A stretch of DNA of 64,000 bases. Source: an uncultured Methanosarcinales archaeon. Lineage in GTDB: Archaea > Nanobdellota > Nanobdellia > Woesearchaeales > CAZKBD01. Each line of letters opens with the position of its first letter. Within the stretch, counting starts at the first letter, position 1. The DNA lies in assembly GCA_964550945.1 (NCBI GenBank), contig CAZKBD010000001.1:289-64288 (forward strand), given 5' to 3'. The notes under the pieces are model-generated. The model was not told the DNA's origin. It worked only from the letters and a program-made list of their open reading frames with translations, and did no database searches. Shown here piece after piece: positions 44,978 to 64,000 of this stretch. A program made the translations under genes and the position numbers.

Positions 44978-46867
44978 ATGGATAGCCAATTTTCAGTAGA
45001 TATAGAAACAAATTTCTTAGATATGATTAGTTCCCCATCTGAACTAAAATTATTGAACAGAAAGCAGATAAAGCTGCTAACTAAAGAAGTAAGAAGCAGG
45101 ATAATAAAAACAGTTTCAAAAAATGGCGGCCATTTGGCCTCAAATTTAGGGGTGGTAGAGCTGACAATAGCCTTAAACTATGTGTTCAGCCCTCCAAAAG
45201 ATAGGATCGTATTTGATGTTGGCCATCAAAGCTACACATATAAGCTTCTTACCGGCAGGAGCAAGAATTTTGGCAGTTTAAGGCAGCATAAAGGGATTTC
45301 AGGATTCCCGAAAAGGGAAGAAAGCATTTGCGATTCTTTCAACACAGGCCATGCCTCTACTTCAATCTCAGCTGCCCTTGGGATTGCTAAAGCAAGAGAC
45401 TTAAAAAATGAAAATTATAAGGTAATTGCGGTGGTTGGTGACGGAGCTTTAACAGGCGGAATGTCATTTGAAGCGCTAAACCATGCAGGAGCGTTAAAAA
45501 CAGATTTATTAGTGGTATTGAATGACAATGAGATGTCTATAAGCCCTAATGTCGGAGCCTTATCCAAATATCTCACGAGGATGGTTACTAGCCCAAAATA
45601 CCATGAAATAAGGCAAAAGACAGAGCTATTGCTGAAAAAACTGCCAAAATTCGGAGATATTGCTGCAAAAAAAGCCTTTGAATTAGAAGATTGGATCAGG
45701 GCAATGTCTGCCCAAGGGTTATTTTTCAAAGAAATGGGTTTCCATTATTTCGGGCCTATTGACGGCCATAATCTTGATGAGCTGGTATTAGCATTAAATA
45801 ACATAAAGTCAATAAAAGGCCCTGTTTTGCTCCATGTGATAACAAAAAAAGGCAAGGGCTATAGCCACGCAGAAAACAATAACGCAAAATTCCACGGCGT
45901 AAACCAGTTCAACATCTACAATGGAGAAGACACTAATTGCAGCACTAATATGACGTTTACATCTGCTTTTTCAAAAGCGCTGACAAAACTGGCTGAGCAA
46001 GACAAGAGTATAGTTGCAATAACAGCTGCAATGAAATTAGGAACTGGCCTTGAGGAATTTGCAAAAAACTATCCTAACAGGTTTTTTGATGTTGGCATTG
46101 CTGAGCAGCATGCTGTTACTTTTGCAGCCGGCTTGGCTAGCCAAGGCTTTAAGCCTGTATGTGCAATCTATTCAACATTTTTGCAGCGAAGTTATGACCA
46201 GATTTTACATGACGTTTGCCTGCAGAATCTGAATGTTACTTTTGCAATTGACAGGGCAGGATTAGTTGGAGAAGATGGGCCAACACACCATGGCTCTTTT
46301 GATTTAAGCTTTTTAAGGCACATACCTAATATGGTTATTGCTGCTCCAAAAGATGAAAATGAACTGCAGCATTTATTAAAAACCGCCATTGACTATAATG
46401 GCCCCGCGGCAATCAGGTATCCAAGAGGTTGCGGTATTGGTGCAAAAATGGACAAGACTCCTATGAGATTAAAAATTGGCAAATCAGAGGTTGTAAAGCA
46501 TGGCTCTGATGTTGCAATATTCGCAGTTGGCCACTTAGTTTATGAGGCAATTGAAGCTGCAAAGGAATTAAAGGAAAAAGGCATAAAAGCAATGGTTATA
46601 AACGCAAGATTCATTAAGCCATTAGATGAAAAATTGATTTTATACTTAACAAAAAAGATAAAAAATATAATCACCATAGAAGAAAACTCTTTGCAAGGTG
46701 GGTTTGGCTCTTCATTATTAGAGCTTTTGGAGAAAAATAAGATAAAGGCAAATATAAAAAGGATAGGGCTTCCTGATAAATTCATTGAGCATGGTCCTTT
46801 GGAAATTTTAAGGAAGAATTATGGCTTAACCAAAGAGAATATTGTAAAGGCGGTTGAGGATTTATGA
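44978..46867 (+). CDS. dxs: 1-deoxy-D-xylulose-5-phosphate synthase
   Basis: TPP-binding GDGALTGGMSFEALNHAG. Transketolase-like pyrimidine and C-terminal domains. Length 629 aa. Confidence 0.9.
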   Translation: MDSQFSVDIETNFLDMISSPSELKLLNRKQIKLLTKEVRSRIIKTVSKNGGHLASNLGVVELTIALNYVFSPPKDRIVFDVGHQSYTYKLLTGRSKNFGSLRQHKGISGFPKREESICDSFNTGHASTSISAALGIAKARDLKNENYKVIAVVGDGALTGGMSFEALNHAGALKTDLLVVLNDNEMSISPNVGALSKYLTRMVTSPKYHEIRQKTELLLKKLPKFGDIAAKKAFELEDWIRAMSAQGLFFKEMGFHYFGPIDGHNLDELVLALNNIKSIKGPVLLHVITKKGKGYSHAENNNAKFHGVNQFNIYNGEDTNCSTNMTFTSAFSKALTKLAEQDKSIVAITAAMKLGTGLEEFAKNYPNRFFDVGIAEQHAVTFAAGLASQGFKPVCAIYSTFLQRSYDQILHDVCLQNLNVTFAIDRAGLVGEDGPTHHGSFDLSFLRHIPNMVIAAPKDENELQHLLKTAIDYNGPAAIRYPRGCGIGAKMDKTPMRLKIGKSEVVKHGSDVAIFAVGHLVYEAIEAAKELKEKGIKAMVINARFIKPLDEKLILYLTKKIKNIITIEENSLQGGFGSSLLELLEKNKIKANIKRIGLPDKFIEHGPLEILRKNYGLTKENIVKAVEDL

Positions 46868-47907
46868 GAAATAAATCAACAAAGCGGATAAAAGTTGGAA
46901 ATGCGCTTATAGGAGGCAATGCAGATATTACTGTCCAGTCTATGACAAACACAGATACAAAGAACATCAACGCAACAATAGGCCAGATAAAAAGGCTGGA
47001 AGAAGCTGGTTGCGAGATCATCAGGTTAGCTGTTCCTGATATGGAATCAGTAAGTGCCTTAAAAGAGATTAAAGATAACATTAACATTCCATTGGTTGCT
47101 GACATTCATTTTGATTATAGGTTAGCAGTTGAAGCTGCAAAGTATGTAGACAAGATAAGGATTAATCCAGGCAATATTGGAAATAAGATTCCAGAGGTTG
47201 TTAAAGCTGCAAAAGAACATTCCATCCCGATAAGAGTTGGCATTAACTTAGGCTCTTTAGAAAAAGATATCGAGAAAGAATTCGGCCTTACAGCAAAAGC
47301 AATGGTTGAGTCTGCTTTAAGAAACATCAAAATTTTAGAAGATTTGGATTATTATGATATTGTGGTTTCGTTAAAGGCAAATGATGTTGTAAGGACAATA
47401 GAAGCAAATAAATTATTTTCAAAAATTAGCAACTATCCTCTGCATTTAGGTGTTACAGAATCAGGCTCCAGCTTTTCCGGCACAATAAGCTCAGCAGTAG
47501 GGATTGGAAGCTTGCTTGCAGAAGGCATTGGAGACACAATAAGGGTTTCCTTATCAGCTGATCCTGTTGACGAAGTTAAAGCTGGATGGCAGATATTGAA
47601 GGCACTAAAATTAAGAAAGAGGGGCATTGATATAACAAGCTGCCCAACATGCGCAAGAGCTCATTTTGATGTAATAAAAGTTACAAAAGAATTAGAGGAG
47701 AAAACATCTGGAATAAAAAAACCATTGCATATAGCAATTATGGGCTGTGAAGTCAATGGGCCAGGAGAAGCAAAGGAAGCAGATATTGGTGTTGTGGGGG
47801 GCAAAGGAGAGCATCTTATTTATAAAAAAGGAGCAATAATTAAAAAATTGAAAGAAGATGATATAATCGATTCTGTTATGGAAGAGATTGATAGGGTTAT
47901 TCTTTAG
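46864..47907 (+). CDS. ispG: 4-hydroxy-3-methylbut-2-enyl diphosphate synthase (GcpE)
   Basis: ITSCPTCAR...IAIMGCEVNGPGE Fe-S Cys ligands. ATGA overlap with dxs. Confidence 0.9.
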   Translation: MRNKSTKRIKVGNALIGGNADITVQSMTNTDTKNINATIGQIKRLEEAGCEIIRLAVPDMESVSALKEIKDNINIPLVADIHFDYRLAVEAAKYVDKIRINPGNIGNKIPEVVKAAKEHSIPIRVGINLGSLEKDIEKEFGLTAKAMVESALRNIKILEDLDYYDIVVSLKANDVVRTIEANKLFSKISNYPLHLGVTESGSSFSGTISSAVGIGSLLAEGIGDTIRVSLSADPVDEVKAGWQILKALKLRKRGIDITSCPTCARAHFDVIKVTKELEEKTSGIKKPLHIAIMGCEVNGPGEAKEADIGVVGGKGEHLIYKKGAIIKKLKEDDIIDSVMEEIDRVIL

Positions 47908-47927
47908 ATGTGAGTTGTCAAGAACCG

Positions 47928-48030
47928 CCGCCCTGAAGGGCAGGGTGTGTTCTTGAGCACACTCAGAAACCGCCCTCTTGCCATAAGCTGAAGCAAAGGG
48001 ATTGCGAGTGGCGGTTTCTGATGTTTCAAA
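47928..48030. other. GC-rich structured element (nested inverted repeats) between ispG and a convergent gene
   Basis: gccctgaagggc hairpin. gtgtgttc/gagcacac stem. 12-bp perfect IR tcagaaaccgcc...ggcggtttctga with ~35-nt spacer. GC content far above the local background. Confidence 0.35.
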
Positions 48031-48133
48031 ATGGAGCATTATTAATAATCTAACTCATCACTATTGCTTTTTTCTTTTTATTCAAAGGCTAGGTAACTAA
48101 TGGATCAAATAGTTATGTTAATTCTCTAACAGA

Positions 48134-48715
48134 TTATTTTTCGAATTTAGTCCACAGAATGATTATTAAAATGTATGCAATAAAAATCATTAACGGTTTG
48201 AGATAGCCAGTCAGCTCAAAATTACCTAAGGATAGTTTATCAGCAAACAAATAAGAACACAATAACGCAATAAATGTTATACCCATAATTTTATCAAAAC
48301 TTTTGTTATTATAACTCTTTAATTCAAAAATAGAATAGATGGATACCAACAGAGGGATAAGGCTTCTGTTTAATTGCAATAATGCTGTCGTAAAATCTTT
48401 CCATATTAACGATTGGATTAACGAAATGAATGAGCCCCACATATAGCTAGGATTTGTTGGCACATGCATAGGATTGAACAAAAAGATTAGAGAAGCTGTC
48501 AATGCAAGAACCCAAGCAATTTTTTTCGTTTTATTTGTATTGATAAACAGAAGGGCTATTGAAACCAAATATAAAAATAAGTATAGCAACAAAAATTTTG
48601 CATAGAGAAAAGTTTGAATGCTAAACAAACTTCCGATGACCATATTGAAATTTAGAATAATAACCAAAATTACAAAAATAATAAATGTTTTTTCTTTGAG
48701 ATTAAATCTTGCCAT
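48134..48715 (-). CDS. Polytopic membrane protein of unknown function
   Basis: Five or six hydrophobic helices. ATG start. Confidence 0.45.
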   Translation of the reverse strand: MARFNLKEKTFIIFVILVIILNFNMVIGSLFSIQTFLYAKFLLLYLFLYLVSIALLFINTNKTKKIAWVLALTASLIFLFNPMHVPTNPSYMWGSFISLIQSLIWKDFTTALLQLNRSLIPLLVSIYSIFELKSYNNKSFDKIMGITFIALLCSYLFADKLSLGNFELTGYLKPLMIFIAYILIIILWTKFEK

Positions 48716-48796
48716 TTATATTAAATATAAAATTGAGCATATATAAACATTTTGACCAAAAGGAGGCATACAACAACATATCAATCAATCCAGTAA

Positions 48797-49111
48797 CTAG
48801 CTTACCGTAATCACTTTTTTCTTTTTATTCAACGGCTCAATAACTAATGAGTCAAATAGCTCTACTAATTTTTTAACAAATGGGTTTTCAGTATTTAATT
48901 TGTAAAGCTTGGCATTTCCGATATCCCTGGTGTGGGTTATGATTCCTAAACCTATCAAATCAGCCCATAGCCTAAATAAGGTTGTCCTTCCAATGCCAGC
49001 TCCTTCTGCTATGTCAGAGATAGAATAGTCCAGCTCTCTGCCCTCAATCAGGAACTCTAATACTCTTATTTTTGGTGTGTCTCCAACTGCTTTAGTAAAT
49101 AGCGTTTCCAT
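48797..49111 (-). CDS. Small winged-HTH transcriptional regulator
   Basis: PKIRVLEFLIEGRELDYSISDIAEGAGIGRTTLFRLWADLIGLGII. Paralog of 59162..59533. Confidence 0.6.
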   Translation of the reverse strand: METLFTKAVGDTPKIRVLEFLIEGRELDYSISDIAEGAGIGRTTLFRLWADLIGLGIITHTRDIGNAKLYKLNTENPFVKKLVELFDSLVIEPLNKKKKVITVS

Positions 49112-49216
49112 ACAACTACGTTAAAACGAACCAATATTTAAATGTTTCTATTTTGGAACGTATCAGTTCCATATTTAGAGTTAACTTTTATAAATAAGCG
49201 CCTATTCCATCTGCCT

Positions 49217-49474
49217 ATGGATAAGATATTTATTATGAAAAGATTTTTAAGAAAATTGATTAATCTCGAGATTTGGGGTGGCAGGCATACTGAATTAACT
49301 AATCTAAAGAAATGTATACCAAAACACCTTAGAGGAGAAAAAGTTACTTCAGAAGCTATTAAAGAGCTTGTTGGTGATGGCTTAATCATAGTCAAACAAT
49401 CAACTGGAGAAATTCATGTTGCATTAAATTCACAAAAACAGCATGAGATTTATGAATTTGTAAAAGAAGAATGA
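49217..49474 (+). CDS. Small hypothetical protein, translationally coupled to dxr
   Basis: Internal [17 protein letters not shown].... The stop overlaps the dxr ATG. Function unknown. Confidence 0.35.
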
Positions 49475-50601
49475 AACAACTATCAATCTTAGGCTCAACT
49501 GGAAGCATCGGAACCCAAACACTGGATATTGTTAGAGAAAACCCTAATGATTTCAAGATAGTTGCTTTGACAACAAATAAAAATATCCAACTTTTGAAAA
49601 AGCAGATTGAGGAGTTCAAGCCAGAGCTTGTCTGCGTTTTTGACAAGGAGGCTGCAGATAACCTAAAAATAGAAATTCCGATCCACAAAGGGATGGACGG
49701 TTTGATAAAAGCTGCTACAATTGACAATGCAGACACTATTGTCAATTCTTTAGTCGGCTCAATTGGAGTGATGCCCACTTACAAAGCAATTAAGGCAGAA
49801 AAGGATATTGCTTTAGCAAATAAAGAAACATTGGTCACTGCAGGAAGCATAATAATGGATGAAGTTAAAAAAAATAATGTCAAGCTAATGCCCATTGACT
49901 CAGAGCACAGCGCAATCTTCCAGTGTTTAAACGGTGAAGACATCAAGACAGTTAACAAGATAATAATTACCTGCTCAGGAGGTGCTTTTAGAGACAAAGC
50001 AAACCTAGAAAACCTAAATGCAGCAGACGCACTAAAACACCCAACATGGAATATGGGAGCAAAAATCACAATTGATTCTGCAACTTTGATGAACAAAGGA
50101 TTTGAGGTTATTGAAGCCCATTTCCTCTATAGTATTCCTTATGAAAAGATTGAAGTTATCATCCATCCTCAATCAATAATCCACTCATTAGTTGAATTTA
50201 ATGATCATTCTGTCATGGCTCAGTTAGGATTGCCTGACATGAGGATTCCTATACAGTATGCCCTGGCTTATCCAAGAAGGATAAAGAACCAGCTGAAATC
50301 ACTAAACCTGAAAGAAATAAAATCCCTTGATTTTAAAGAGTATGACGAAAAAAGGTTCCCCTGCCTAAAATACGCTTATGAAGCAGGCAAGATTGGGGGA
50401 ACATTGCCGGCAGTTATGAATGCAGCTAATGAAGTTGCAGTTGCCTCATTCCTCAAAAACAAGATCAGCTTTGTAGATATTCCGATGACAGTTAGAAAAG
50501 CGATGGACGAGCATAAGGTAATCAAGAATCCTGAGCTGGATGAGATTTTGGAAGTTGATAAGGAAGTTAAGGAAAAATGGGAAATGTTTTTAATGTACTA
50601 G
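49471..50601 (+). CDS. dxr: 1-deoxy-D-xylulose-5-phosphate reductoisomerase
   Basis: N-terminal [23 protein letters not shown]-binding motif. Length 376 aa. Confidence 0.9.
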
Positions 50602-50939
50602 CAAGGTTATTAAGAAACCCTCGGAAAAGCGCTCAAAATCAAAGAGATCGCCCAAGAGTGGATGTACGTGAGCTGAATATAGAAGCGATTATTGACACCA
50701 ATTTACAAAGATGCCATATTGGAAAGCTGGTTAATTTGAGCTGTAGTGGTGCATTAGTGCATTATCCAATTGAATTGCATCCAGGAACTGAGTATCCATG
50801 GGCATTATCTGGCCGCAAATATAAAATAACTGGAACTGCAGTATACAGTTGTTTTAATACCAAAGGAGGTTATATGATAGGAGTTCAGTTTAAAGCGCCG
50901 ATCCAGGATGTAAACATAATCAAAGAATACGGCCTATAA
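50577..50939 (+). CDS. PilZ-like small protein
   Basis: [13 protein letters not shown] (RxxxR) ... NLSCSGALV ((D/N)xSxxG) spacing resembles a PilZ c-di-GMP-binding motif. Tentative. Confidence 0.35.
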
Positions 50940-50941
50940 GA

Positions 50942-52093
50942 ATGGCAATAGCAATAATAACCGCAGCAGGAACTGGAAAAAGAATGAATCACACAACCAA
51001 TAAGATACTTCTCTCGCTGGCTGATAAGCCCATAATATACTGGACAATAAAAGCATTTGATGATTGCAAATCAATTAATGACATTGTTGTAGTTGTCAAC
51101 AGAGGAGATAAGATAGAAATCACTAATATAATAAAAAAGTCAAATTTTAAGAAAGTGAGAACCATTGTGGAGGGGGGTGAGAGACGGCAGGAGTCTGTGC
51201 ATAATGGATTAAATGCAATAGACGCAAACGATGATGACATCATTTTGATCCATAATGGAGCAAATCCTTTTGTTTCAGAAAAATTGATTGAAGATGTTAT
51301 CAAGGCAGCAGATGAATTTGGCGCAGCAGGGCCTGCAAATCCAGCGCGAGATACAATAAAGGAAGTGGATAAAGATAATTTTGTAGTGAAAACATTGGAC
51401 AGGAGCAAACTAAGGAACATGCAGACGCCTCAGGCAATAAAATATAGTGTTGCCAAAAAAGCATTTCAGCAGGCAGTTAAAGATGGTTTTTATGGCACAG
51501 ATGACCTGGCTTTGGTTGAAAGGCTGGGAGAAAGGGTTAAGATTGTTAAAAACGAGGCTGAAAATATCAAGATAACCTATCCTCTTGATCTTAAATTTGC
51601 AAACCTTTTGAAAGATTCTATCAGAGTTGGCATTGGCCAGGACTCCCATAAGTTCGCAAATGAGGAAAAGCCATTGATGATGGGCGGGATTAAAATAGAA
51701 AATGAAAGGGGTTTAGAGGCAAACTCTGATGGAGATGTTATCCTTCATGCCATATTTAATGCTATTGCATCTTCAATTGGAGAGCGCTCAATAGGCCATT
51801 ATGCAGACGATATGTGCAAAAAAGGCATTAAAGACAGCAAGGAATACCTTAAATTTATTTTAAACATCTTAAAAGAAAAGGAATATATTATAAACAATAT
51901 CGGAATTGCGTTAGAATGCAAAACCCCCAGTATATCTAATATTGAAGATAAGATAAAAGGATCCTTGTCAAGATTGTTAAGCATAAATGACAACCAGATC
52001 GGGATTACTGCAACATCAGGAGAAGAGTTAACAGAATTCGGGAAAGGGAATGGCATTCAGTGTTTTGTTATAGTGGGCGTTAAGAGGAAATAA
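50942..52093 (+). CDS. ispDF: Bifunctional IspD/IspF (MEP cytidylyltransferase / MEcPP synthase)
   Basis: N-terminal IITAAGTGKRMN (IspD P-loop-like). C-terminal GIGQDSHKF (IspF metal site). 383 aa. Confidence 0.85.
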   Translation: MAIAIITAAGTGKRMNHTTNKILLSLADKPIIYWTIKAFDDCKSINDIVVVVNRGDKIEITNIIKKSNFKKVRTIVEGGERRQESVHNGLNAIDANDDDIILIHNGANPFVSEKLIEDVIKAADEFGAAGPANPARDTIKEVDKDNFVVKTLDRSKLRNMQTPQAIKYSVAKKAFQQAVKDGFYGTDDLALVERLGERVKIVKNEAENIKITYPLDLKFANLLKDSIRVGIGQDSHKFANEEKPLMMGGIKIENERGLEANSDGDVILHAIFNAIASSIGERSIGHYADDMCKKGIKDSKEYLKFILNILKEKEYIINNIGIALECKTPSISNIEDKIKGSLSRLLSINDNQIGITATSGEELTEFGKGNGIQCFVIVGVKRK

Positions 52094-56956: not shown

Positions 56957-57595
56957 TTAGCTCCTTCTACCAAATATAGCTGTTCCCAACCTTATAAGGT
57001 TAGCTCCTTCCTCAATAGCTATCTTGTAGCTGTCAGACATCCCCATAGAGAGGATAGCTATAGAGGGATATTTCTTATGAATCTTGTCAAACAATCTTTT
57101 CATTTCTTTAAAATAAGGCCTTATCTTTTCAATATCTTCAAAAAAAGGGGCCATGGTCATTAGGCCGGTTATTTTAACATTTTTTAATTTCGAGATTTCT
57201 TCAATTAATATTTCAAGATTTTCTGGAAGAACTCCTGTTTTTTTTGTTTCTTTGCCAATGTTGACTTCTATATAGGTGGGAATCTGTTTTTTAGTTCTTT
57301 TATCTATTTCTTTTGCTATATCCAAAGAATCAACAGTCTCAATTACATCAAATATCTCAAGAGCTTTCTTTATTTTGTTTTTTTGCAGATGGCCTATGCA
57401 GTGCTTTTCAATATCTCCTTTTATATAGGGGTATTTCTTTTCAGCTTCCTGCACATAATTTTCTCCAATAATAGATATTCCTGAATCTACTGCTTCTTGT
57501 ATTTCAGCTGTTGTTCTTGTTTTTGTTGCTGCTAAAATCTTTACATTAGCAGGTATTTCTTTTTTGATTTTGTTGATAGTTTGAGTTAGAGCCAT
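56957..57595 (-). CDS. YggS-family PLP homeostasis protein
   Basis: ILAATKTRTTAEI...IGENYVQEA with the conserved PLP-binding Lys. 212 aa. Confidence 0.8.
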   Translation of the reverse strand: MALTQTINKIKKEIPANVKILAATKTRTTAEIQEAVDSGISIIGENYVQEAEKKYPYIKGDIEKHCIGHLQKNKIKKALEIFDVIETVDSLDIAKEIDKRTKKQIPTYIEVNIGKETKKTGVLPENLEILIEEISKLKNVKITGLMTMAPFFEDIEKIRPYFKEMKRLFDKIHKKYPSIAILSMGMSDSYKIAIEEGANLIRLGTAIFGRRS

Positions 57596-60325: not shown

Positions 60326-61999
60326 TTAATTGGCTGTGCTTGTTGCTAAACACATATCATCATATGGATCATTCTTGACATATTTATCAATGTAACAATC
60401 ATTAGGCTGCATTTTCTTGCCTTTTCCGCCAACAGCTTCATTACCTTTCCAATCAGCGCTCACACATAATTTTCTGTTTGGGTTTTTCTGACTAGTAAGT
60501 GGATTAAACTTGTCACAGAACTGAGCAGCAGAACAACCGTTAGTATCCACTTCTACTCCTAACGGTGTGTTGGGACATAAATCAATAGTATCTGGTATAC
60601 CATCATTATCGTCATCGGAATCACGCTCTGGATCGTATATAGAGCTTATCGCTTCACATGAATAAATCTCAGTTATTTCTCCAGCTACGCAAGTATCATT
60701 ACCATCATCTGGATAATCTATCCAGTTTTCTCCTTCACATTGGTCAGTTGGACAATCTCTGAATGGTATTGTTATTTGTGTGCAAGAGCAGCCATTTATG
60801 TTAACAGCTTCATCCAATGGTGTGCTAGGGCACAAGTCCCTACTATCTGGAACTCCATCACCATCAAGGTCATATCCTAATTTAACTAGCCAAATATCAT
60901 ATCCCCCGGCTCCAAACGATTCAGTATATCCAGTTACAATATACCCTCCTTCAGTTGTTTGCTGTATTGAGGTAGCGTAGTCATAGTTTACACCACCAAC
61001 GGTCTTATTCCATTCTTCATTTCCACTTGAATCCGTATTTATAACCCACATATCATAAGCTCCTTCTCCAGACGAACCAGTGGGACCAGCCACAATATAA
61101 CCCCCGTCATTAGTTTGTTGGACTGAATAAGCATTGTCGTCACCAATATCACCATAAGTTTTATTCCATTGCTCATTACCACCTGAATCTGTTTTTATAA
61201 TCCAGAAGTCATAACTGGTTAGAAAAGAATGTGACCACCCAGCAACAATAAATCCGCCATCACTCGTTTGCTGAACTGAATGTGCCGTTTGTTCACTGCC
61301 AGTGCCAAATACATTATTCCATTGCTCATTACCACCTGAATCTGTTTTTACTAACCAAAAATCTGTATTAAACCCCCAAGAAAATGTTTTTGTATACCCT
61401 GCTATTATGTACCCACCATCAGAGGTTTGGTCTAAAGAATGAGCCTCTTCCCATTCTACACCACCATAGGTTTTATTCCATTGCTCATTCCCAGTTGAAT
61501 CTGTTTTAATAAGCCAGAAATCACCAGAACCAAATCCTACTCTTTTATATCCTGCTCCGATATATCCACCATCAGAAGTTTGTTGAATCTCGTTAACAAT
61601 GTACTCAGATTGTTCAGGAAGCCCCCCATATGATTTATCCCATTCTATATTACCACTAGAGTCTGTTTTTATCAATCTAAAGTAAGCTATCCAATCACGT
61701 TTATAGTATCCAGCCACAATATAACCACAGTCATTAGTTTGTTGGACTGAGTAACCATGCATAGCACCAAAATTTTTATCCCATTCTATATTACCACTAG
61801 AGTCTGTTTTGATTAACCAGAAATTTTCAGCATTTTTAGTTCCAACTACAATATATCCTCCATCTGAAGTTTGTTGTACTTCCCGTCCATAATCATTTAA
61901 CCCTTCACCAAATGTATTAGCCCATTCTACCATTGGAACAGCCGAAACTAAACTCATACCCAAAACTAACCCAACCAATACTAGAATTATCTTTTTCAT
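60326..61999 (-). CDS. Secreted beta-propeller-repeat protein with C-terminal thrombospondin type-3-like Ca-binding repeats
   Basis: Signal peptide MKKIILVLVGLVLGMSLVSA (ATG at 61999 preceded by a GGTGGAGG RBS). About eight repeats of QQTSDGGYI(V/I)AG...FWLIKTDSSGN(E/I)(E/Q)W(N/D)K. Two DxDxDGxxDxxDxCPNTP motifs. Confidence 0.65.
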   Translation of the reverse strand: MKKIILVLVGLVLGMSLVSAVPMVEWANTFGEGLNDYGREVQQTSDGGYIVVGTKNAENFWLIKTDSSGNIEWDKNFGAMHGYSVQQTNDCGYIVAGYYKRDWIAYFRLIKTDSSGNIEWDKSYGGLPEQSEYIVNEIQQTSDGGYIGAGYKRVGFGSGDFWLIKTDSTGNEQWNKTYGGVEWEEAHSLDQTSDGGYIIAGYTKTFSWGFNTDFWLVKTDSGGNEQWNNVFGTGSEQTAHSVQQTSDGGFIVAGWSHSFLTSYDFWIIKTDSGGNEQWNKTYGDIGDDNAYSVQQTNDGGYIVAGPTGSSGEGAYDMWVINTDSSGNEEWNKTVGGVNYDYATSIQQTTEGGYIVTGYTESFGAGGYDIWLVKLGYDLDGDGVPDSRDLCPSTPLDEAVNINGCSCTQITIPFRDCPTDQCEGENWIDYPDDGNDTCVAGEITEIYSCEAISSIYDPERDSDDDNDGIPDTIDLCPNTPLGVEVDTNGCSAAQFCDKFNPLTSQKNPNRKLCVSADWKGNEAVGGKGKKMQPNDCYIDKYVKNDPYDDMCLATSTAN

Positions 62000-62071
62000 C
62001 TTAACCTCCACCCAATAATTGACTAATTATAGACGTAACTATTTAAAACTTTCTCAAAAACTGCCTTAAGA

Positions 62072-62200
62072 ATGCTGGTTGATTCTCAATTTCTTATTAA
62101 CCGCCTTCTCCAAAATCGCTTGCCTTTTTTCATGGATTCCAAAGCCAATCTCATCACAAGTATAGTTGGCCAAAATATTACTCAGTCCAAACATTTATTT
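62072..62200 (-). pseudogene. Truncated 3' fragment of a second LAGLIDADG endonuclease gene copy
   Basis: Encodes ...CDEIGFGIHEKRQAILEKAVNKKLRINQHS*, which matches the C-terminus YDEIGFGIHEKRQVILEKAINKKLRVNQYC of 62822..63823. About 88% nt identity over ~70 nt (62083-62150 versus 62838-62905). Confidence 0.6.
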
Positions 62201-62419
62201 GAATTTATTAAAGAAATCTTCTCTAGACATGTTTATTTCTTCCAAAATGACCTTCAACAAACCTCTGCTTATATCTTTTCCTGTATGAAAAGGAACTACC
62301 GTAGTTCTTCCATCTGGGTGCCTATAGAACATATGACTTCCTTTCTGGCGGATTAGTAGAAAACCTTCTTTCTCTAATAATTTGCACAACTCCTTTGCGG
62401 AGAGAAGCGGCAATTTCAA
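62195..62419 (-). CDS. hicA: HicA-family mRNA interferase toxin
   Basis: SAKELCKLLEKEGFLLIRQKGSHMFYRHPDG. TTG start. Confidence 0.7.
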   Translation of the reverse strand: MKLPLLSAKELCKLLEKEGFLLIRQKGSHMFYRHPDGRTTVVPFHTGKDISRGLLKVILEEINMSREDFFNKFK

Positions 62420-62421
62420 GT

Positions 62422-62640
62422 TTACATCACTTCAACTTCTTGTATCCCAACAAACTTGTTAATATCTCTTGAATCATCATCATTTTTGACTTCAAGGCAA
62501 AGTTCAATCGCCTCTCTAATATTTTTCATTAATTCATCTAATGTATCGCCCTGACTGACACAACCTCTTAATTCTGGAACTTTACCTACAAAAACACCAT
62601 CTTCATCTTGTTCAATTAATACATGATATATCCTTTTCAT
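62422..62640 (-). CDS. hicB: HicB-family antitoxin
   Basis: MKRIYHVLIEQDEDGVFVGKVPELRGCVSQGDTLDEL. Sits 2 nt upstream of hicA. Confidence 0.65.
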   Translation of the reverse strand: MKRIYHVLIEQDEDGVFVGKVPELRGCVSQGDTLDELMKNIREAIELCLEVKNDDDSRDINKFVGIQEVEVM

Positions 62641-62821
62641 ACTTGGGTGTATATCTAGTCTTGTTTATATATATTACGGTTGGTCGGCCCTCCGTCATAC
62701 TTCTCCCCCACTTCGTAGTGGTCGGTTCGGCTAAAAGCGTGCATATGTTAATCATTCTTTTTATTTTCTAACCTTTTCTTCTCTTTCTGCAAATCTAAAT
62801 AATTTTCATCAGAAACTACTT

Positions 62822-63823
62822 TTAGCAATATTGATTTACCCTCAATTTCTTATTAATCGCCTTTTCCAGAATCACTTGTCTTTTTTCATGAATTCCAAAG
62901 CCAATCTCATCATAATATTTCATTAATTGCTTTGCACTAATGTATATGCTCCACATATCATGCCTTTCATTTCTTAAAGAAGGTTTGCATTCAAATCCTA
63001 AAAGAGTAAATAACTGATGCAAATATTTAATTTCCTTTTCGTTCCTCATTTCTATTCGCACATACCTGCTTTTGTTGAAGTAGGCTGTGCCTTCTCCAAT
63101 CATCATACCTCTGGTGTAAGCTGCTGCTAGTTTCTTGTCTTTCTTGCACAATTCTTTGATTTTATCTTCTATTGCTAAAATCAAATCAATGATAACTGCA
63201 CTGTCAACACAAAGTCTATATTTTACGACCTGATTATACGAGTCTTCTTTAAATCTTATTTGATCATTATTTATTAATCTTCCAACATTTTCAAAATTAA
63301 TATCATTTCCGCTGGGATTGATTACATTCACATAAGATTCAATCTTAGGAAGATAAGTGCTGATCCATCTGATCATATGATTAATTACAGTGATTTCAGA
63401 ATTAGTAAATCTGAATTTTCTGGGTCTTGTATCACCGCTAAAACCAGTATCTCCTTCTGCAAGATAAAGTGCATATCCTTCAACAAAAAATTCATCAATC
63501 TCTAATAATTTAGGGATTTGAATACAATCTTTGTGAGAACCCCAATGATAAAACCCAATAATATGGGTGTATAACTCTTCTTTTGAAATACCTAAGTGGC
63601 CTGTTATCATCAGTAGCCTACAAAACGGATGATAAGCGTTCCTTTTGAATTCCCACCTAAGAGTCCCTATATTTGTTTTTAAAGCTCCACTGAATATGTT
63701 TAATGTGCCATATTTTTTAATAATCGTTTCATTAATCTTGTTAAAAAATTCATCTGTAATTTTAACATGCACTCTCTTAAAATCTTTCAAATAATCATAA
63801 GTTACAATTTGATTCATCTTCAT
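62822..63823 (-). mobile_element. Free-standing double-motif LAGLIDADG homing endonuclease
   Basis: Two LAGLIDADG-type motifs, YALYLAEGDTGFSGD and TRGMMIGEGTAYF, about 110 aa apart in a 333-aa protein. Confidence 0.7.
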
Positions 63824-64000
63824 CGCCTCATTTTAATCTTTTTTTTTATTTCCTCAAAAAAGAGATTATTGAGGCACAAAAAAGAAAGCGTTGAGCGAAA
63901 CTGCATAATAGATTTTTGTGTCAACGACCGAAAATTTTAATTTAACAATTTTGCGTGCTCTCTTTATCAAGAACCACCAGTCAATAGACATGGTGGTATG

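Follow-up and report, generated by a model that had tools for sequence, protein, structure and literature searches.

A HicAB toxin–antitoxin pair between the 3′ end of a predicted LAGLIDADG homing endonuclease gene and an old relic of a second such end in a Woesearchaeales genome

Layout of the locus

We analysed a stretch of 64,000 nucleotides (nt; hereafter the window) from an uncultured archaeon that GTDB places in the Woesearchaeales (GenBank assembly GCA_964550945.1, contig CAZKBD010000001.1, positions 289 to 64,288). Near its right-hand end, on the minus strand, an intact gene for a predicted LAGLIDADG homing endonuclease is followed by a HicB–HicA toxin–antitoxin (TA) pair and then by a short second copy of the endonuclease gene’s own 3′ end. 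Four open reading frames (ORFs) make up the minus strand here, of 333, 72, 74 and 42 amino acids (aa), the last of them (62066–62194) a mechanical ORF. The features are, in the direction of reading:

62822..63823, minus strand: intact gene for a 333-aa free-standing LAGLIDADG homing endonuclease, predicted from the ORF, its homologues and an AlphaFold2 model
62801..62918, minus strand: repeat copy A, the 3′ end of the functional endonuclease gene (30 codons and stop) with about 22 nt of flank, from alignment
62641..62800, minus strand: spacer from the endonuclease 3′ flank to hicB, holding a G+C-rich patch and the hicBA promoter
62422..62640, minus strand: hicB antitoxin gene, 72 aa, the short form without a DNA-binding domain (PF15919, E = 1.6e-11; PF21748, 6e-8; phrog_497, 5e-13)
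62195..62419, minus strand: hicA toxin gene, 74 aa, TTG start, GSH motif (PF07927, E = 3.5e-21)
62164..62194, minus strand: junction from the hicA stop to the relic; the hicA stop runs straight into the ATG of the 42-codon ORF (TAAATG)
62047..62163, minus strand: repeat copy B, read from alignment and the family profile as a displaced relic of what was the 3′ end (30 codons and stop) of a diverged endonuclease allele, plus about 22 nt of flank

The two 3′ ends form a direct repeat. Aligned without gaps, 62066–62159 and 62822–62915 are 84% identical over 94 nt at a spacing of 756 nt, and the best local segment (72 nt, 91.7%) has a BLAST E value of 1.8e-22 against the whole window. Two single-base gaps lengthen the repeat to 118 nt (62801–62918 versus 62047–62163), so that it takes in the final 30 endonuclease codons with their stop and some 22 nt of 3′ flank; outside these limits, before codon 304 and past the flank, the copies are unrelated. 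Copy B falls within the 42-codon ORF. An earlier note, written from the sequence before any database search, had placed a truncated second 3′ end at 62072–62200, about 88% identical over about 70 nt and 620 nt from the full gene; these figures are approximately right, and the truncated end is a true relic. The remnant protein matches the C-terminus of the 333-aa ORF (29 aa, 83%, E = 4e-10) and also the C-termini of about 85 endonuclease homologues. The similarity is therefore not one of low complexity, a possibility that the note itself had raised.

No third endonuclease copy was found in the window, and a six-frame search of 61990–62830 with the hidden Markov model (HMM) of the family matched only from about 62173, that is, the tail, with no 5′ or middle relic. 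The TA pair does lie between the two copies, as first described, but it does not fill the interval exactly: hicB and hicA cover 446 of the 637 nt (62164–62800), and the remainder is the 160-nt spacer and the 31-nt junction. Searches with Rfam at the gathering score and for tRNAs gave no match in the window, nor did Rfam at E ≤ 1 in 61900–64000, and a scan for sigma-70 promoters and terminators found sites no more numerous than in shuffled sequence.

A free-standing double-motif endonuclease

The 333-aa protein had no match in Pfam, NCBIfam, PHROGs or the sequences of the PDB, and an exact-match look-up returned no record. Its reading as a double-motif LAGLIDADG protein is thus based on family homologues and predicted structure, not on direct sequence annotation. 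The 142 homologues are very uniform in length (about 335 aa); many carry a precomputed PF14528 assignment, and some are named LAGLIDADG endonuclease by NCBI. In an alignment of 25 of them (44–80% identity), the motifs LYLAEGDTG and RGMMIGEGT are invariant, each with an acidic residue (D125 and E244) located where LAGLIDADG enzymes have their catalytic residues:

63443..63487, minus strand: LAGLIDADG motif 1 (FVEGYALYLAEGDTG); E123, G124, D125 and G127 invariant in the alignment
63449–63451, minus strand: codon of the putative catalytic D125, in motif 1
63086..63130, minus strand: LAGLIDADG motif 2 (LAAAYTRGMMIGEGT); R238 to T246 nearly all invariant in the alignment
63092–63094, minus strand: codon of the putative catalytic E244, in motif 2

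The AlphaFold2 model, built on the same 25-homologue alignment, has a mean predicted local distance difference test score (pLDDT) of 91.2 and a predicted template modelling score (pTM) of 0.90. It shows a tandem alpha-beta-beta-alpha-beta-beta-alpha fold preceded by an extra N-terminal helical domain of about 100 aa. Its best Foldseek match in the PDB is I-DmoI (E = 1.9e-8, target-normalised TM score 0.69), followed by PI-PfuI, I-Tsp061I, the bI3 maturase, WhiA, I-SceI and I-OnuI. There were 81 PDB chains matching at E ≤ 0.001, and the best 50 of these 81 are all LAGLIDADG proteins. We regard it as settled that the ORF, as homology and the model predict it, is a monomeric, double-motif, free-standing LAGLIDADG homing endonuclease of a family that resides at the 3′ end of ppsA. 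The full double-motif ORF proposed in the earlier note is intact, and it lies in neither an intron nor an intein, as was also said there. The enzyme is probably active.

One variant was seen: a contig from a sister sample (L094) is identical to the window over 1.5 kb save for a 1-nt deletion in a T run (window position 63443), which frameshifts the endonuclease directly after LAGLIDADG motif 1. As the contig ends some 40 nt away, the deletion may reflect faulty assembly, or else a genuine pseudogene variant.

A fixed address at the 3′ end of ppsA

Loci of the family were fetched from species-representative genomes (24), from metagenomes (62) and by exact look-up (three). Besides the window’s own strain they number 88, in 59 clusters at 97% protein identity. 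The gene ppsA, recognised as that of phosphoenolpyruvate (PEP) synthase by its PPDK_N, PEP-utilizers and PEP-utilizers_C domains, lies directly upstream on the same strand in 77 of the 88 and is convergent with the endonuclease, with abutting stops, in three; six more have too little upstream DNA to judge, and two lack ppsA. The endonuclease thus adjoins the ppsA 3′ end in 80 of the 82 informative loci. None of the 88 holds two full endonuclease copies. The family is sparse, being present in 24 of 185,579 species genomes, as against at least 8000 ppsA homologues. Depositors labelled the loci as Woesearchaeota, Nanoarchaeota and Aenigmatarchaeota and, in the candidate phyla radiation (CPR), as Nealsonbacteria, Parcubacteria, Staskawiczbacteria and Saccharibacteria; the CPR-labelled contigs encode type I GAPDH, acetate kinase and ATP-PFK, a gene content that fits a bacterial origin.

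Besides the sparse distribution given above and the fusions described below, three kinds of observation point to mobility into this site. First, pseudo-tails of ppsA, 20–36 codons long and typically beginning near FAxFLVxxGIxS(I/M)SLNPDTVIKT, stand directly behind the endonuclease stop in at least 15 sequence clusters. In L032 (loci carry the prefix L) the pseudo-tail starts one base past that stop and runs 36 codons to its own stop, differing from the functional ppsA tail mostly at synonymous positions. Second, an empty site exists. In L090 ppsA is followed by 37 nt and a 131-aa ORF, with no endonuclease; in L004 a 1263-nt insert (spacer and endonuclease) separates ppsA from the same 131-aa ORF. 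The flanks of the two loci are 84% and 82% identical and their ppsA proteins 91%, so that one conserved site is polymorphic for presence and absence of the element among relatives, not in the window’s genome. Third, endonucleases only about 55% identical occur in hosts whose ppsA cores are about 90% identical, that is, alleles turn over. The fixed home, the displaced ppsA tails and the empty site had all been missed in the first reading of the window.

By analogy with these relatives, three parts would make up the element: a ppsA 3′ end that replaces the native one, a spacer, which here carries a conserved structured leader (see below), and the endonuclease gene. As in standard homing, the enzyme would cut endonuclease-less ppsA alleles near the codons for the conserved C-terminal FAxFLVxxGIxSxSLNPD, and repair would then copy the element in and push the native ppsA tail downstream.

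Some loci depart from this layout. In L022, L024 and L026 the endonuclease ORF has no end of its own and reads into the ppsA tail; that the C-terminal tail of the family derives from ppsA was considered, and holds only for these three, not for the window type. Degenerate copies occur, one split (L026) and two partial (L027 and L088). In L027, L086 and L088 a divergent or partial endonuclease stands stop to stop with a convergent ppsA, and in L033 (1717–2721) the endonuclease has no ppsA in the 1.7 kb upstream. The ppsA beside the endonuclease in L010 (2183–5857) also holds a LAGLIDADG_3 intein in its phosphohistidine (mobile) domain, and inteins likewise occur in the ppsA homologues P0181, P0190, P0193, P0195, P0198, P0203 and P0219; endonuclease elements of two kinds have thus invaded ppsA, each at a site of its own.

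A structured leader and the surroundings of the window gene

The window ends 177 nt upstream of the endonuclease start codon. Most of this remaining stretch is occupied by one further feature:

63832..63975, minus strand: structured non-coding leader in the spacer from ppsA (outside the window) to the endonuclease, from conservation, RNAalifold and a covariance model

The leader folds into a long hairpin (about 108 nt) and a second hairpin just before the start codon, and 11 related archaeal loci carry it in the stretch that separates ppsA from the endonuclease. Across 10–11 archaeal loci it is about 80% identical where the endonucleases are only about 55–63% identical; the leader is thus more conserved than the gene it precedes. 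RNAalifold gives 38 pairs, 14 of them with compensatory changes. The covariance model built on it scores 115 bits in the window and finds full-length, forward-strand matches of at least 78 bits at 11 other endonuclease loci, but none at four endonuclease-less ppsA loci or in the CPR loci, so the leader is limited to a subset of archaeal endonuclease loci. It has no Rfam match. Judged by how far the ppsA stop usually stands from the leader, ppsA is probably located right after base 64000, ending a few tens of bases beyond the window.

Downstream, the nearest relative of the window endonuclease (L002, 80% identity) has a YggS-like gene directly after the endonuclease. The orthologue in the window lies at 56957–57595, and the intervening 5 kb or so hold hicBA, the relic, a 561-aa repeat protein and others. 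This 561-aa protein (60326–62011, minus strand) has a signal peptide, repeat units of about 50 aa (…QQTSDGGYI..G….W..KTDS.GN..W…) and thrombospondin type 3-like repeats; its internal repeats confuse between-strain alignments. We sought it in the other endonuclease loci and found it only in the same strain. Farther off, 44978–52093 carries bacterial-type genes of the methylerythritol phosphate/deoxyxylulose phosphate (MEP/DOXP) isoprenoid pathway (Dxs, GcpE/IspG, Dxr and a fused IspD-IspF). By contrast in labelling, DPANN archaea are named as the source of the nearest endonuclease and HicA relatives, as they are for the ppsA genes that adjoin those endonucleases.

Age and nature of the relic

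The earlier note took the repeat as a sign of recent mobility, and here the comparison with L002 disagrees. Over the 94 nt the relic is 84% identical to the resident tail and 83% to the L002 tail, the resident and L002 tails being 86% identical to each other. Since the relic is as far from its neighbour as from the L002 orthologue, it is not a recent copy. Furthermore, a contig from a different metagenome (L095) has hicA, the same junction (35 nt) and the relic at 95% identity, which means that the block of hicA, junction and relic predates the split of these populations. A recent insertion is not supported.

Of the 15 differences between relic and resident tail, about eight or nine are synonymous. 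The replacements are conservative (V/A, I/V, V/I) or are seen in other functional alleles (H); the relic’s variant residues A, V, I and H all occur in functional alleles elsewhere, and its last residue (S) stands at a position that varies across the family. The synonymous bias together with the conservative replacements suggests that most of the divergence accrued while both tails encoded working protein. We regard it as settled, at the level of sequence comparison, that the short copy is a true and old relic, derived from a diverged allele of the endonuclease gene and representing its 3′ end, and that hicBA lies between a functional and a displaced tail.

We also considered whether the 42-aa ORF could be a third gene of the hicBA operon. 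It is rejected as a gene, because L095 has AGG in place of its ATG and a palindrome-rich insertion there breaks off the relic after 22 codons. The truncating sequence (L095, 322–470) has repeated ATGTCAGAAA / TTTCTGACAT arms and a CCAGTC..GACTGG hairpin, and looks like a small inverted-repeat element.

The HicAB cassette

The pair is well defined. HicA begins 2 nt past the hicB stop, and the PF07927 and PF15919 scores are both above the curated cut-offs. At E ≤ 1e-8 HicA has 196 relatives, the best 120 of which are 66–99% identical; those with a source name are labelled Woese- or Nanoarchaeota. Upstream of hicB stands a promoter:

62664–62685, minus strand: hicBA promoter, a TATA-like box with a CCGTAA motif, common to other hicBA loci

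This CCGTAA..TATA motif, some 40 nt ahead of hicB, recurs in L096 and L098–L100. In comparison with L096–L100, the homologous part of the cassette comprises the coding region and roughly 45 nt of promoter, and the 115 nt at 62686–62800 are unmatched. A patch of about 66 nt in the spacer (62677–62742) has about 56% G+C in a window of 37% G+C and a repeated GGTCGG motif; it has no tRNA, Rfam or fetched-locus match. Without an Rfam hit to either, the patch and the leader of the endonuclease match no known RNA.

Close hicBA relatives (81–82% HicA identity) are found elsewhere, within a split gene for diphthamide synthase (dph2). In L096 (120–1164), L098 (893–2158), L099 and L100, hicBA lies between an N-terminal (about 90 aa) and a C-terminal (261 aa) dph2 fragment, and at some of these loci a uracil-DNA glycosylase gene is also inside the split gene. 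For the pair in the window we propose from its sequence that HicAB may act as an ordinary type II addiction or defence module; that its linkage to the endonuclease helps to retain the locus is speculation.

Toxin–antitoxin genes behind other endonucleases

The window is not alone in having TA genes behind the endonuclease. In L003 and L028, of a sister lineage whose endonucleases are about 70% identical to the one described here, there stand behind the gene, in this order, a ParE/MazE pair encoded on the opposite strand, another endonuclease tail (16 codons, 81%), degenerate remains of the same ParE/MazE cassette and a third tail. This order indicates that units of one tail and one TA cassette have been stacked. 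TA pairs also follow the endonuclease in L074 (ParE) and L085 (DUF2283). In L028 (2230–2600) a Cas6-like ORF comes directly after the stacked tails, and behind it a 29-nt CRISPR-like repeat (GTTTGAATAGAACTTAGTAGGATTGAAAT) is present in at least two copies.

Origin of the arrangement

Taken as a whole, our reading is that a ppsA-homing endonuclease, by recombination of two alleles at their conserved 3′ ends, trapped hicBA between the tails; we put its probability at roughly 60%. The recombination could have been an integration or unequal exchange of a unit of tail plus TA genes, followed by decay, and would have left hicBA, together with the promoter that belongs to it, enclosed by a functional tail on one side and a displaced one on the other. 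The sandwich would have formed well before the present and been inherited since. We favour tail recombination because it explains why the direct repeats take in the 3′ flank, why they have diverged from each other and why units are stacked in L028.

Several facts weigh against this reading. Apart from the same strain, no hicBA homologue turned up in any of the 88 other endonuclease loci. The path by which the TA cassette was first joined to an endonuclease tail is one that we infer. A search for ppsA and for a ppsA pseudo-tail over the whole window found neither, and the ppsA address of the element in this genome is inferred only from the leader. Furthermore, a DUF2283 (antitoxin-like) gene directly follows an endonuclease-less ppsA in L091 (4411–4617) and L092 (5167–5373), and on this ground it may be the neighbourhood, and not the endonuclease, that attracts TA genes. 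Lastly, when polarised with outgroups, the changes on the relic branch are four synonymous and four non-synonymous; these counts are too few to decide, and they cannot separate a foreign functional allele from an old in-situ duplicate that decays slowly.

The explanation first offered for the locus was that two full endonuclease genes once stood in tandem and that hicBA entered the downstream one, or took the place of most of it, so that no more than the last 30 codons survived. The relic does resemble a piece of a once-functional, diverged allele. It is also true that the relatives of hicBA sit in a split dph2 gene, where the downstream fragment restarts directly after the hicA stop, as at the TAAATG junction of the window. 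However, 61990–62830 holds no 5′ or middle relic of a second copy, and a family that homes into ppsA would not naturally give tandem copies; none of the 88 loci has two full ones, and the TA relic behind the second tail in L028 also fits better with duplication or integration of a tail plus its cassette. Insertion or replacement by HicAB, like tandem homing with decay, thus stays among the possible histories, and we consider the tandem-copy version unlikely.

Somewhat less probable again is a purely local history, in which the tail and hicBA were duplicated in situ, the second hicBA was deleted and the second tail has been decaying neutrally, with no second allele involved. An intermediate of this kind is seen in L028, where the second unit has a partly deleted TA cassette. 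The repeat takes in about 22 nt of 3′ flank, and half of the changes on the relic branch are non-synonymous, as this history would have it. Against it, the relic is no closer to its neighbour’s tail than to the L002 gene, and the differences are biased to synonymous ones with variant residues known in functional alleles, although with only 15 sites the latter argument is weak.

That the protein is a domesticated, WhiA-like LAGLIDADG DNA-binding regulator of ppsA, no longer mobile and with an incidental tail copy, would suit its strong conservation, uniform length, fixed site by one metabolic gene, N-terminal helical domain and leader, as well as the WhiA among the structural matches and the one homologue that JGI named WhiA, but it is very improbable given the empty site in a close relative, the displaced and fused ppsA tails, the sparse distribution across both domains, the degenerate copies and the allele turnover among near-identical hosts, and given that both acidic residues are invariant and the extra domain is N-terminal, where a WhiA-like regulator would be expected to lack the acidic residues, to have a C-terminal helix-turn-helix and to be universal and vertically inherited.

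Beyond the recombination of two alleles that we favour for the window, the endonuclease tail could be a recurrent landing pad, with units of tail plus TA genes integrating, amplifying and moving between genomes that have the endonuclease, by homologous recombination through the tail. We regard this wider reading as doubtful. If it were true, there would be composite selfish elements, each a homing endonuclease with an addiction module, in DPANN archaea and the CPR, and the nesting of TA genes in the endonuclease tail would repeat, one level up, the nesting of the endonuclease in ppsA.

Relation to known systems

The closest parallel that we found is in fungal mitochondria, where mobile ORF (mORF) endonucleases show a foreign C-terminus, the endonuclease and, downstream, the native C-terminus of the host gene; examples are atp6 of Allomyces macrogynus, atp6, atp9, cox2 and nad3 of Glomus, atp9 of Rhizopus and cox2 of Mortierella (PMC3630166). 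The ppsA-linked relatives likewise show a free-standing endonuclease near the 3′ end of a host gene and a displaced native tail, an architecture found in L032 and at least 15 clusters; in the window itself, ppsA is off the end and no pseudo-tail is present in the 64 kb. The differences lie in the hosts, which are DPANN and CPR chromosomes, in the target, ppsA, and in the ORF, which usually has its own start after a spacer and is not in phase with the host gene. The window adds a second layer, that is, a TA cassette between duplicated endonuclease tails.

As modelled, the enzyme would share with I-DmoI, I-Tsp061I and PI-PfuI the fold and two LAGLIDADG helices with one acidic residue each. It is only about 15% identical to them, however, and whereas these enzymes are encoded in rRNA introns or inteins, the window enzyme has a free-standing gene and carries about 100 aa more, as an additional N-terminal domain. 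The inteins of PEP synthase with LAGLIDADG domains have the same host gene and endonuclease superfamily as the window element; they sit in frame in the phosphohistidine domain and splice out, whereas the window element is a separate gene at the 3′ end.

Free-standing homing endonucleases between or beside conserved genes are also found in T-even phages, whose Seg and Mob enzymes spread by intronless homing, cutting endonuclease-less alleles with co-conversion of the flanks. Seg and Mob are GIY-YIG or HNH enzymes of phage genomes, and duplication of the target’s 3′ end is not known to be a regular feature of these elements. As for the TA pair, it resembles type II HicAB modules in having HicA and HicB domains adjacent in one operon, and differs in that the antitoxin comes first, HicB is short (72 aa) and the pair lies between the duplicated ends of a selfish gene.

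A full-text literature search returned no description of an mORF-like element at ppsA, in DPANN or CPR genomes or in prokaryotic chromosomes. The sole paper joining LAGLIDADG, phosphoenolpyruvate synthase and homing endonuclease is on a 23S rRNA intron endonuclease. The parts of this layered selfish locus, a LAGLIDADG endonuclease, HicAB and a gene relic, are ordinary; the family is apparently an undescribed prokaryotic counterpart of the mitochondrial mobile-ORF elements.

Implications

For annotation, the 42-codon ORF should be marked as a relic and the 333-aa ‘hypothetical protein’ as a homing endonuclease. The family itself, which has at least 140 well-conserved protein clusters and holds one site in a central metabolic gene, ppsA, offers new scaffolds for meganucleases, and their target can be guessed. 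If the capture of TA genes between duplicated endonuclease ends recurs, two kinds of selfish element would be linked. In addition, the family spans DPANN archaea and the CPR, ultra-small symbionts that share habitats, and is therefore a marker of gene flow between them.

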